Assembly: GCA_044229975.1 (NCBI GenBank)
Contig: JBGARZ010000008.1
Span: 160,001 to 224,000, forward strand
Direction of reading: 5' to 3'
Source of the DNA: Polyangiales bacterium
GTDB taxonomy: Bacteria > Myxococcota_A > Polyangia > Polyangiales > Ga0077539
DNA: 64,000 nt
Shown here in pieces: positions 57,379 to 59,643 of this stretch (position 1 is its first letter; each line of letters starts with the position of its first letter). Under the pieces are notes generated by a model, which made no database searches, was not told the origin of the DNA, and worked only from the letters and a program-made list of their open reading frames with translations. The translations under genes and the position numbers were made by a program.

Positions 57379-57433
57379 GGCCGCCTTCGGACCGGGTGTG
57401 GTCGCGTCCCGCGCCTGCACCACCGGGCAAGCG

Positions 57434-59358
57434 ATCGGCATAGGGGCGGCCCCTCCGTGAGGAGGAGCCGACCCCTGCCACACCACCGGACAAGCGGGTC
57501 CGCATCCGGCGGTTCGGACGGTTGAGGTCACCTCCGTAGCCTCCACAACCCGAGGCTGTCGAACCAACTGGGTCGGAGCGTGAAGCCCAGGCGGAGCGCG
57601 CGGCGCCACCAGCCACCGGCCGAGGCCACCGACTTCCAGCTTGCTTCGTCCCCTTGTCCAAGGGCGCGCAGCGACTGGTAGATCGTGATGCCTCGCTTCC
57701 AGTGCTTCAGTTGCACCATCCGAAGGCGACGGCGAATCCACTCGTCCAGCCCCTCGAAGAGCTTCGTCTGCTGCGTGAGGCGGTAGTACGCCCACCACCC
57801 ACGCAGGTACCGATTCAGCCTCTCGATCAGTTGCACCAGACTGCGACCCGCCGTCCGGCTCGTGAGCTCCCGCACACGCGCCTTGAACGCCTCTTGCGAC
57901 TTCGCCGACACCCCTCGCTTCACTTCTCCGCCGTGCGCGTAGAACTGAAAGCCCAGGAACTTCCGTCCCTTGACCGGCGCCACCGCGCTCTTGGACTCGT
58001 TGACCCGGAGGTGCAGCGACGCGAAGCGCTCCCGCAGGAATGCCATCACTCGCTCGCCCGCCCGCTCCGACCTCACGTACACGTTGAGGTCGTCGGCGTA
58101 GCGCACGAACGCGTGACCGCGCTGCTCCAACTCCTTGTCCACTTCGTCCAGAAGCACGTTCGCCAGCAGTGGTGACAGCGGGCCGCCTTGCGGCGTTCCC
58201 TCCGTCCGCGCCGTCGCGATCCCGTCGGCCATCATCCCGGCCTCCAGGTAGCGACGGATGAGCCTCAGCAGGCGCTTGTCCTCGATGCGTTTGGCCAACC
58301 GGCCCATCAGCACGTCGTGGTTCACGCGGTCGAAGAACGCTTCGAGGTCCACGTCCACCACCACCCCGCGCCCCTCCTGGACGTAGCGCTGTGCGACGAC
58401 AATCGCGTCGTGCGCGCTGCGCCCCGGGCGGAACCCGTAGCTGTGCTGTGAGAAGGTCGGATCGAATCGAGGCTGAAGCACCTGGAGGATCGCCTGTTGG
58501 AGGAGACGATCCAGGGCCGTCGGGATGCCGAGAGTCCTCGTGCCGCCCGACGCCTTGGGGATCTCGCACGATCTCACCGGCTGCGGTTGGTAGCGCCCCG
58601 CGAGGAGGTCCTCGCGCAGACGCGGCCAGTGCACACGCAGGTGGGCCGCGAGATCCTTCGTCTCCATCCCGTCCACTCCGGGGCTGCCCCGGTTGCTCTG
58701 CACCCGCTGGAGCGCCCGCAAGAGGTTGTCCCTTCCGAGGACCGCCTCCAGCAAGGCGCTGGTGCCCGAGTGCTCGTCTCCTTTCGTCGCCGTGGGGTCT
58801 TCCTCGCGGGGCTGCGCGTTGAGGGCTTCACCCTCGTCGCGCCTCCCTCGCCCCGGTGGTGTCCCGGGCATCTGAGGCGGTTCCCTTTTGAGACTCATGG
58901 TCGATGCACCCTCCCTTCCGTTTGGTCCTTTGCGCGGCCGTCGGCCCTTCGTCGTGGCGTTCCCCGTCGTGTCTCCGACGTCGTTGGCGACGTCGGCGCG
59001 GGAGCCCAGGTTTTCGGACGCGCTACTACGACCTCTGCTGACTTCCTGCGCCGCACGTTGGTGTGTGTCGCCCTTTCAGGCGTGAAGCAGGATCTCCCCG
59101 GGTAAGAAACGCTGGCTTTCACGGCGCAACCGCCCGATCTACCGCACGGTCTCTTGGTCATTGGAGCTTCGCGGCTCCTTGCCCGCTCGCCCCAGACCGC
59201 ACGGCCTCACATCGGCTTTCTGTCCGTCGGCTCGCCGTTTCGCGTCGGGCTTCCTTCAGACAGTCCGTTGCCTCGCTGCCCTTGCCTCTCGCGTGGATCG
59301 TCATGACCTACTTTCCCGGGGACTTGCACCCCGAAGCCAACGCCCATGCCGGGCGCAC
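57434..59358 (-). mobile_element. Group II intron, bacterial class C (about 1925 nt)
   Basis: 5' end GTGCGCCCGGCATGGGCG; domain V GAACCGCCGGATGCGGACCCGCTTGTCCGGTGGTG (CGC triad); domain VI ending CCCTATGCCGAT; boundaries confirmed by the uninterrupted copy of the target at 59559-59643. Confidence 0.93.
57528..58898 (-). CDS. ltrA: Group II intron reverse transcriptase/maturase (no endonuclease domain)
   Basis: RT0 GSPGVDG, LGIPT, SYGFRPGRS, GTPQGGPLSP, RYADD, X domain GWWAYY. Confidence 0.95.
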   Translation of the reverse strand: MSLKREPPQMPGTPPGRGRRDEGEALNAQPREEDPTATKGDEHSGTSALLEAVLGRDNLLRALQRVQSNRGSPGVDGMETKDLAAHLRVHWPRLREDLLAGRYQPQPVRSCEIPKASGGTRTLGIPTALDRLLQQAILQVLQPRFDPTFSQHSYGFRPGRSAHDAIVVAQRYVQEGRGVVVDVDLEAFFDRVNHDVLMGRLAKRIEDKRLLRLIRRYLEAGMMADGIATARTEGTPQGGPLSPLLANVLLDEVDKELEQRGHAFVRYADDLNVYVRSERAGERVMAFLRERFASLHLRVNESKSAVAPVKGRKFLGFQFYAHGGEVKRGVSAKSQEAFKARVRELTSRTAGRSLVQLIERLNRYLRGWWAYYRLTQQTKLFEGLDEWIRRRLRMVQLKHWKRGITIYQSLRALGQGDEASWKSVASAGGWWRRALRLGFTLRPSWFDSLGLWRLRR

Positions 59359-59643
59359 AAAGCGAGCGCCCCTCCGGGGCTTCCGGAAGACCACCATTGC
59401 CACCAGGCCGCAAGCGGCCAGGGCCCACGCCGCGGCGTCAGCGAGGCGCGCGACGGTCGGGTCCGCAGTCGTCGGAGACTGCCAACGTTGCCGTTGCGCG
59501 CCGCGCTGACGCCGCGGCGTGGAACCAGAACCGTGAGCCTGTCCGTAGTGGTCGATCCCTTCCGGAAGCCCCGGAGGGGCGCTCGCTTTTGCTTGCCCGG
59601 TGGTGCAGGCGCGGAACGCGACCAACCCCGGTCCGAAGCGGCC
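59359..59643. repeat. Nested inverted-repeat element (left arm continues at 57379-57433 beyond the intron)
   Basis: Outer arms about 85 bp; inner arms 59425-59456 and 59491-59522 (2 mismatches). Confidence 0.9.

Follow-up and report, generated by a model that had tools for sequence, protein, structure and literature searches.

The window, the whole 64,000-nt stretch of Polyangiales DNA that was analysed, carries a group II intron inside a long inverted repeat, and the locus raises the question of whether the intron landed there once or whether such repeats are its regular target. The preliminary description had placed a class C intron in one arm of the repeat, and the intron ends, the Rfam matches, the intron-encoded protein (IEP) and the identity between the arms confirmed this assignment.

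The intron and the repeat arm it occupies

The intron comprises the following features:

57434..59358, minus strand: class C (group IIC) intron of 1,925 nt, present in 8 near-identical genomic copies
57528..58898, minus strand: intron-encoded RT/maturase (IEP), 456 aa, with YADD at 58089-58100
57482..57515, minus strand: domain V, carrying the CGC triad of class C; domain VI continues to 57434
59177..59180, minus strand: predicted EBS1 (AAGG) in the d3 loop of domain I, from the Rfam alignment and covariation in relatives
59139, minus strand: candidate EBS3 (G), the predicted IBS3 partner, from the model alignment and covariation

On the minus strand, the intron starts with GTGCG at 59358 and ends with CCGAT at 57434, giving the 5' GUGYG and 3' AY ends of class C together with its D5/D6 fold. 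Rfam model group-II-D1D4-3 matched at 59107-59277 (105.7 bits; gathering threshold 32), and the D5/D6 model matched at 57434-57514 with 30.5 bits, under its gathering threshold of 40. Domain I carries an AGGAA motif and D5 a CGC triad, both listed as class C marks in the available text of PMC1702495, and the short EBS1-IBS1 pairing (3-4 bp) with an upstream stem-loop also agrees with this class. The EBS positions were taken from the Rfam model and covariation rather than from a minimum free energy fold, which, run on domain I alone, gave no significant result (z -0.81). The IEP passed TIGR04416 (417.9 bits; cut-off 300) with RVT_1 and GIIM as its only domains, and a profile search of the 456-aa protein found no endonuclease domain. 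Its best solved relatives in the PDB were 6AR1 (GsI-IIC RT; E = 2.6e-128) and 7UIM (E.r. maturase; E = 3.7e-93). An RT with an X domain, closest to class C proteins and free of an endonuclease, is the arrangement of B.h.I1, GsI-IIC and the E.r. intron (PDB 7UIM).

The surrounding repeat is organised as follows:

59359..59389, minus strand: inner part of the invaded arm, the 5' exon, from sequence and DNA fold
57379..57433, minus strand: outer part of the invaded arm, the 3' exon, with the IBS3 C at 57433
59559..59643, plus strand: empty partner arm, on the inferred lagging-strand sequence, with T at the IBS3 position 59590
59425..59522, no strand assigned: nested inverted-repeat pair of a second abundant family with 170 BLAST hits in the genome
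56329..57378, plus strand: flanking WYL/WCX-domain gene; the repeat starts directly past its stop codon
59673..59697, no strand assigned: palindrome, which in congener G005 lies directly after the WYL stop codon, where the repeat element is absent

Excision of the intron in silico rebuilt an arm that shares 94% identity with 59559-59643 across 85 nt. Complementarity between the two arms was 100% in the inner 31 nt and 94% in the outer 48 nt, and thus the window holds both an invaded and an empty copy of the target, as had been claimed. The 169-nt spacer between the arms contains the nested pair, whose family forms arrays around another Y1 gene (L004). The start of the 3' exon (57418-57433) resembles the 3' strand of the intron D5 at 15/16 nt; this likeness was treated as chance, since 4 of 150 random genomic 86-mers equalled it and only some arms have the variant.

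The 5' exon consists of a 5-bp GC hairpin (59368-59380), a 5-nt spacer and IBS1 (CTTT) at 59359-59362, a geometry close to that of the E.r. structure, which is described in a passage of PMC10190682 as a stem, a 4-nt spacer and a 4-nt IBS1. EBS1 AAGG is predicted to pair with IBS1 CTTT through three Watson-Crick pairs and one G.T pair, and it pairs perfectly with the CCTT version found at the insertion in congener G007. The loop base next to EBS1 (A) is the predicted partner of position -6, which is T in 7/8 filled arms of the host genome and C in the window arm.

In G005, the WYL orthologue (77%) is followed immediately by the palindrome that here lies past the repeat element, so the element was either inserted here or lost in G005. 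The repeat and intron now part the WYL gene from this palindrome, which is kept in G005 before a different downstream gene and is possibly an operator. An orthologous empty allele, with arms and no intron at the window locus, was not seen in 8 sequencing runs.

Intron copies in the host genome

The host genome (G000; 10.0 Mb, 71% GC, 39 contigs, 93% complete) holds five full intron copies plus three 5' and three 3' ends at contig edges. Pairing the edge ends by arm similarity gives a count of eight, three of which rest on such inferred joins. The 5' exon stops at the same arm base in 8/8 copies, and the 3' exon runs on into the arm in 7/8; in the eighth it enters an insert of 478 bp, beyond which the remainder of the arm follows. 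The introns are at least 99.95% identical to each other, yet the invaded arms are 87-96% identical (7 compared), and the spacers of the filled elements (45-169 nt) differ in length and sequence. Taken together, these values indicate that the insertions were independent and recent: near-identical introns appear to have invaded older, diverged repeats one at a time, and recent mobility of the intron is implied. The window element is a real, intact, recent, multi-copy IIC intron.

The genome was also scanned for competing sites that combine a hairpin with CTTT|C. There were 242 such sites, 12 of them in arms; outside predicted coding DNA there were 53, of which 8 lay in arms, and the ~45 other non-coding sites were all without an intron. 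The chance of finding 8/8 copies in arms was ~4e-10 for all sites and ~2e-5 for non-coding sites (the latter calculated with a rounded total of 65 sites), both under a loose null that has no term for selection against harmful insertions. In this genome, every copy of the intron keeps to a single Y1-associated repeat family. The preliminary description had proposed a multi-copy REPIN/MITE-like target, and had named copies at ordinary terminators together with a single-copy repeat as the pattern that would speak against it; all eight copies proved to use one multi-copy repeat family. Its suggestion of many landing sites was overstated, as there are 23 full arms and 8 of 11 two-arm elements are already filled.

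The known types of IIC target were compared with these sites. All eight lie inside a repeat arm rather than at an intrinsic terminator (hairpin plus U-tract), the junction being preceded by three T and followed by a second hairpin. Integron attC sites, with the consensus TTGT/T, likewise do not describe them, as IBS1/IBS3 is CTTT/C in dispersed arm pairs, and site inspection in G000 revealed no cassette array.

The target repeat and the choice of arm

The 23 full arms form 11 inverted pairs plus one single arm, and shorter derivatives are also present. Matches to the arm family were found in 8 of 40 relatives searched, all within the host family. In congeners G007 (C794) and G001 (C223), the same arms enclose, in inverted orientation, a Y1 HUH transposase gene, and because this gene is IS200-like and flanked in both congeners, the target was regarded as a REPIN-like element. 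The cognate Y1 protein matched NF033573 (IS200-like; 63.8 bits, cut-off 55), had no match to NF047646 in a profile search, and carries the motifs DHAH, WQ and Y---Q--HH, as in subclass 1.2, for which Y---Q--HH is given as the signature in a passage of PMC6006769. A relaxed form of this motif occurred in 23/30 collected Y1 loci.

The element was then compared with RAYT/REPIN (TnpA-REP) systems and with TnpA-Y1 subclass 1.2 (Quentin et al. 2018). As in those systems, the arms lie on either side of a Y1 gene (in G007 and G001, not in G000 itself) and recur without the gene as dispersed inverted pairs of variable spacer. Unlike them, the protein is not a TnpA-REP (class 2, Y---NP motif, NF047646), and the repeat is by inspection an 85-nt two-hairpin arm (75-135 bp among the arms) in which the GTAG/GTGG foot of a 20-40 nt REP was not seen. 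The target element thus behaves REPIN-like but lacks two features of canonical RAYT/REP systems. Subclass 1.2 is reported in the part of PMC6006769 available to us to be without REPs or typical hairpin features, whereas flanking inverted repeats were found here at 21/30 Y1 loci.

G000 contains four Y1 genes (L001-L004; contigs C23, C34 and C26), none with the target arm, and each is bordered by an inverted repeat of its own (95-135 bp) or by a repeat array of its own, with 28-170 BLAST hits in the genome. These repeat families nest inside one another, and no intron copy was found in them in G000. Four G000 sites (C11:600572, C19:117454, C4:76783 and C36:424218) belong to a variant arm family, in which the inner hairpin is longer and the linker differs, likewise with no intron. 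The linker of another Y1 arm family holds a 2.2-kb element (L291:400-2619; G000:C39:198698-200917). It has terminal inverted repeats as well as a 4-bp duplication, and weakly matches the IS1380 family (26 bits; cut-off 180); in target arms, short derivatives with its ends occupy the site used by the intron (C34:360137-360614, C32:8732 and G005:C606).

The cognate Y1 gene for the target arms was not found in the 93% complete G000, which bears on two other readings. According to one, a single entry of the intron into the repeat was followed by spread of the filled element through the Y1 transposase or recombination, as might be expected of arms from a transposase-associated family with presence/absence at one locus. 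However, the insertion splits the arm, no cognate gene was found, and introns at least 99.95% identical sit in arms and spacers that differ; since the flanks have diverged, this reading is already largely refuted, and we consider it very improbable. According to the other, a Y1 protein recruits or licenses the intron, for example by nicking the arm or keeping it single-stranded. The clustering of insertions in the inter-hairpin linker, always outward-facing, would fit, and relaxase nicking stimulates another intron (an excerpt of PMC7306698). On the other hand, the burst is recent, yet the cognate gene was not found; known IIC introns need only a hairpin and IBS geometry; and the replication-strand bias agrees with fork-dependent entry. 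We therefore rate recruitment by Y1 as improbable.

The base immediately past the junction (IBS3) had been reported as C where the arm is invaded and T where it is empty, and had been put forward as the cause of the choice of arm. The two bases were confirmed, and the rule holds at the window element. Across the genome it fails, as 7/8 empty partner arms also have C, and in five of these the 9-mer most often invaded is intact. Where related introns have a candidate G at EBS3, IBS3 was C at 11 loci and T at 10, these 21 loci including several copies of one intron. IBS3 is thus refuted as a general rule here and is quite improbable as what sets the arm, although it may add to the strand bias at the window locus.

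Replication strands were called with an 8-mer/KOPS score trained on intron-free contigs, plain GC skew being too noisy for this purpose; the motif in the score is the one we take to be KOPS. With calls at +/-160 kb, leading-oriented arms were filled in 8/11 cases and opposite arms in 0/12. The filled arms were positive for the leading strand in 8/8 cases at +/-160 kb, 7/8 at +/-80 kb and 6/8 at +/-40 kb. Of the three empty leading-oriented arms, one has CGTT as IBS1, one has G at -6 and a weak strand call, and one (C36:156 kb) looks perfect and well oriented but is empty. Judged from these orientations, replication direction seems to account for the choice of arm better than IBS3. Class C introns favour the lagging-strand template (PMC8919778, in a passage citing Robart 2007).

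The best explanation, to which we give a probability of about 0.78, is that the eight arm-linker copies of an intact class C intron were placed by repeated retrohoming, with the inner hairpin of the arm replacing the terminator hairpin. Mechanistically, this is likely the usual hairpin-guided retrohoming, with the lagging-strand template as substrate. By analogy with characterised IIC introns, the RNP would bind the hairpin and the 9-nt spacer/IBS1 on single-stranded DNA, and the intron would reverse-splice into the lagging-strand template. A two-arm element would present one target per strand, so that only the arm co-oriented with the fork would be used.

Related introns and the breadth of a possible target preference

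A quick tree of 60 IEPs placed the window IEP in an 8-row clade with 100% SH-aLRT support, and 32/32 further homologues joined it, giving a clade of 40 proteins. Junctions of the clade type matched the flanks of 30 Y1 loci in 12/14 cases at E<=1e-3 (9 at E<1e-6), compared with 2/86 for other junctions, a lenient control, given that the Y1 flanks were drawn from the host family and most controls from other taxa. The three G043 copies all occupy arms belonging to the Y1 gene of that genome itself (an arm family matched 91 times in G043), and L207 sits in the arm family of L001 of G000. In G007, the intron's 5' end lies at the base, and in the arm family, that it uses in G000. In the alignments examined, insertions occupy the linker between inner and outer hairpin, with the intron facing outward. 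Run X1 yielded a 2,140-nt contig on which the intron occupies an arm pair whose spacer (~70 nt) differs from all eight in G000. Four genomes (G007, G009, G013 and G015) were assigned to the clade by intron-end DNA alone, the junction in G006 was pieced together across two contigs, and the G262 site is not independent, as it equals a G043 site. An automated test for a partner arm spanning the junction returned nothing at 36 loci, some with visible arms, and was dropped.

EBS1 differs with each target across the clade. It pairs with IBS1 fully or with one wobble in 43/63 parsed loci, and the EBS1/IBS1 pairs in relatives include GGAT/ATCC, TCAT/ATGA, GCTA/TAGC, CAAC/GTTG and GGAC/GTCC. Ten positions set the clade apart from 42 outgroup proteins, three of them within the C-terminal 54 residues. 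The clade GG at 428-429 aligns to K388/R389 of E.r., residues contacting the EBS1 loop; GsI-IIC has KG there, so this difference is a lead only.

Several structural variants were seen among these introns. L172 (G007:C405:12553-12636), the 5' end at the shared target base in G007, has an internal deletion that removes ~60 nt from domain I past nt 18; the contig ends here, and L172 is possibly a shortened non-autonomous form. The closest sister intron (L116/L166; G005:C176:1207-4847) is 3,641 nt long, ~1.7 kb longer than that of the window, and is placed behind a hairpin where an IS66-like tnpB begins. L226 (G262:C713) and L174 (G043:C15) show the same intron and flank in genomes of two families, pointing to misbinning or recent transfer. 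Related IIC introns lie in tandem or adjoin another intron end at L022, L235, L031, L037 and L057.

All eight copies and most close relatives lie in such repeats, and thus the lineage likely lands there and not at terminators. The closest relative with known flanks (L015 in G005, 84%), by contrast, lies behind a hairpin at the start of an IS66-like tnpB, a name we presume from the reading frame of the gene. The L018 junction had no match among the Y1 flanks of the 30 loci. L125 (G006:C577), an IIC intron outside the clade (56%, long branch) that ends in GTT, is also in a Y1 arm, possibly by convergent targeting. By eye, IIC introns from the same order but more distantly related (L229-L250) are mostly behind terminator-like hairpins, and some distant introns are in other REP-like hairpins or attC-like sites. 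A metagenome pattern scan returned distant introns at 38/39 loci, only L207 being close, and a phylum search of 401 genomes found no new clade member.

Specialisation of the lineage on Y1-associated arms is plausible but unproven; the lineage would prefer these arms, with EBS1 retuned to different arm families in each host. A stronger form, which we regard as less likely than not, sees the IIC clade of 40 proteins as a specialist hyperparasite of a repeat system that has been little described, the long two-hairpin arms of subclass 1.2 Y1 transposases, with a DNA-binding domain changed to read arms, EBS1 freed for retuning between arm families, and the arms as a third IIC target class. Strict specialisation is weakened by the sister in IS66 and by the out-of-clade intron in a Y1 arm. 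The same two cases would fit an ordinary hairpin-seeking IIC intron without lineage preference, for which Y1 arms are the commonest tolerated combination of hairpin and 4-mer in GC-rich hosts while selection purges other insertions. The occupation of the same linker by the IS1380-like element and its MITEs is in line with this, as are the largely shape-based recognition of IIC targets (a passage of PMC10190682) and the P. putida introns, 2/9 of which are listed near REPs (an excerpt of PMC1525189). The ~45 empty non-coding sites, the terminator-like sites of the distant introns and the repeated use by one clade of different Y1 arm families with different EBS1 argue against it, and we consider landing without preference unlikely.

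Compared with terminator-targeting IIC introns, the window intron shares the 4-nt IBS1, IBS3, a hairpin ~9 nt upstream and the lagging-template preference (as stated in the available part of PMC8919778, citing Robart 2007); it differs in using a GC-rich repeat arm without a U-tract terminator, with a sequence common to all copies. The IIC-attC introns S.ma.I2 and Ge.s.I1 (a section of PMC7923331) are likewise a sub-lineage tied to the hairpin substrate of another ssDNA recombinase, strand-specific and with some use of other hairpins, but here the substrate is a Y1 HUH transposase arm rather than an integron attC, and IBS1 varies by host instead of TTGT/T. Landing in dispersed palindromic repeats is shared with the REP-targeting ISPpu9, ISPpu10, ISPa11 and IS1397, for which up to 7/7 insertions in REPs are reported in an excerpt of PMC1525189; those are DNA transposons/recombinases, unlike the retroelement here, and for a group II intron that table records only 2/9. 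In reviews, IIC introns are given two kinds of target, terminators and attC sites (a passage of PMC4424553). A full-text literature search over the main text of open-access articles returned no description of IIC introns specialised on REP/REPIN or Y1-associated repeats, and the accessible portions of PMC8643678, PMC12584367, bioRxiv 10.1101/119735 and PMC8266576 contain none.

These results would provide a genome-resolved case of a third IIC target type beside terminators and attC. With 23 near-identical targets in both orientations, 8 of them filled, the rules for strand, IBS1, position -6 and IBS3 are directly testable, and the EBS1 series over five other IBS1 sequences offers a natural retargeting set for IIC introns. 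REPIN-like repeats are indicated around subclass 1.2 Y1 transposases, which had been reported without them, and one linker appears to serve two unrelated mobile elements.
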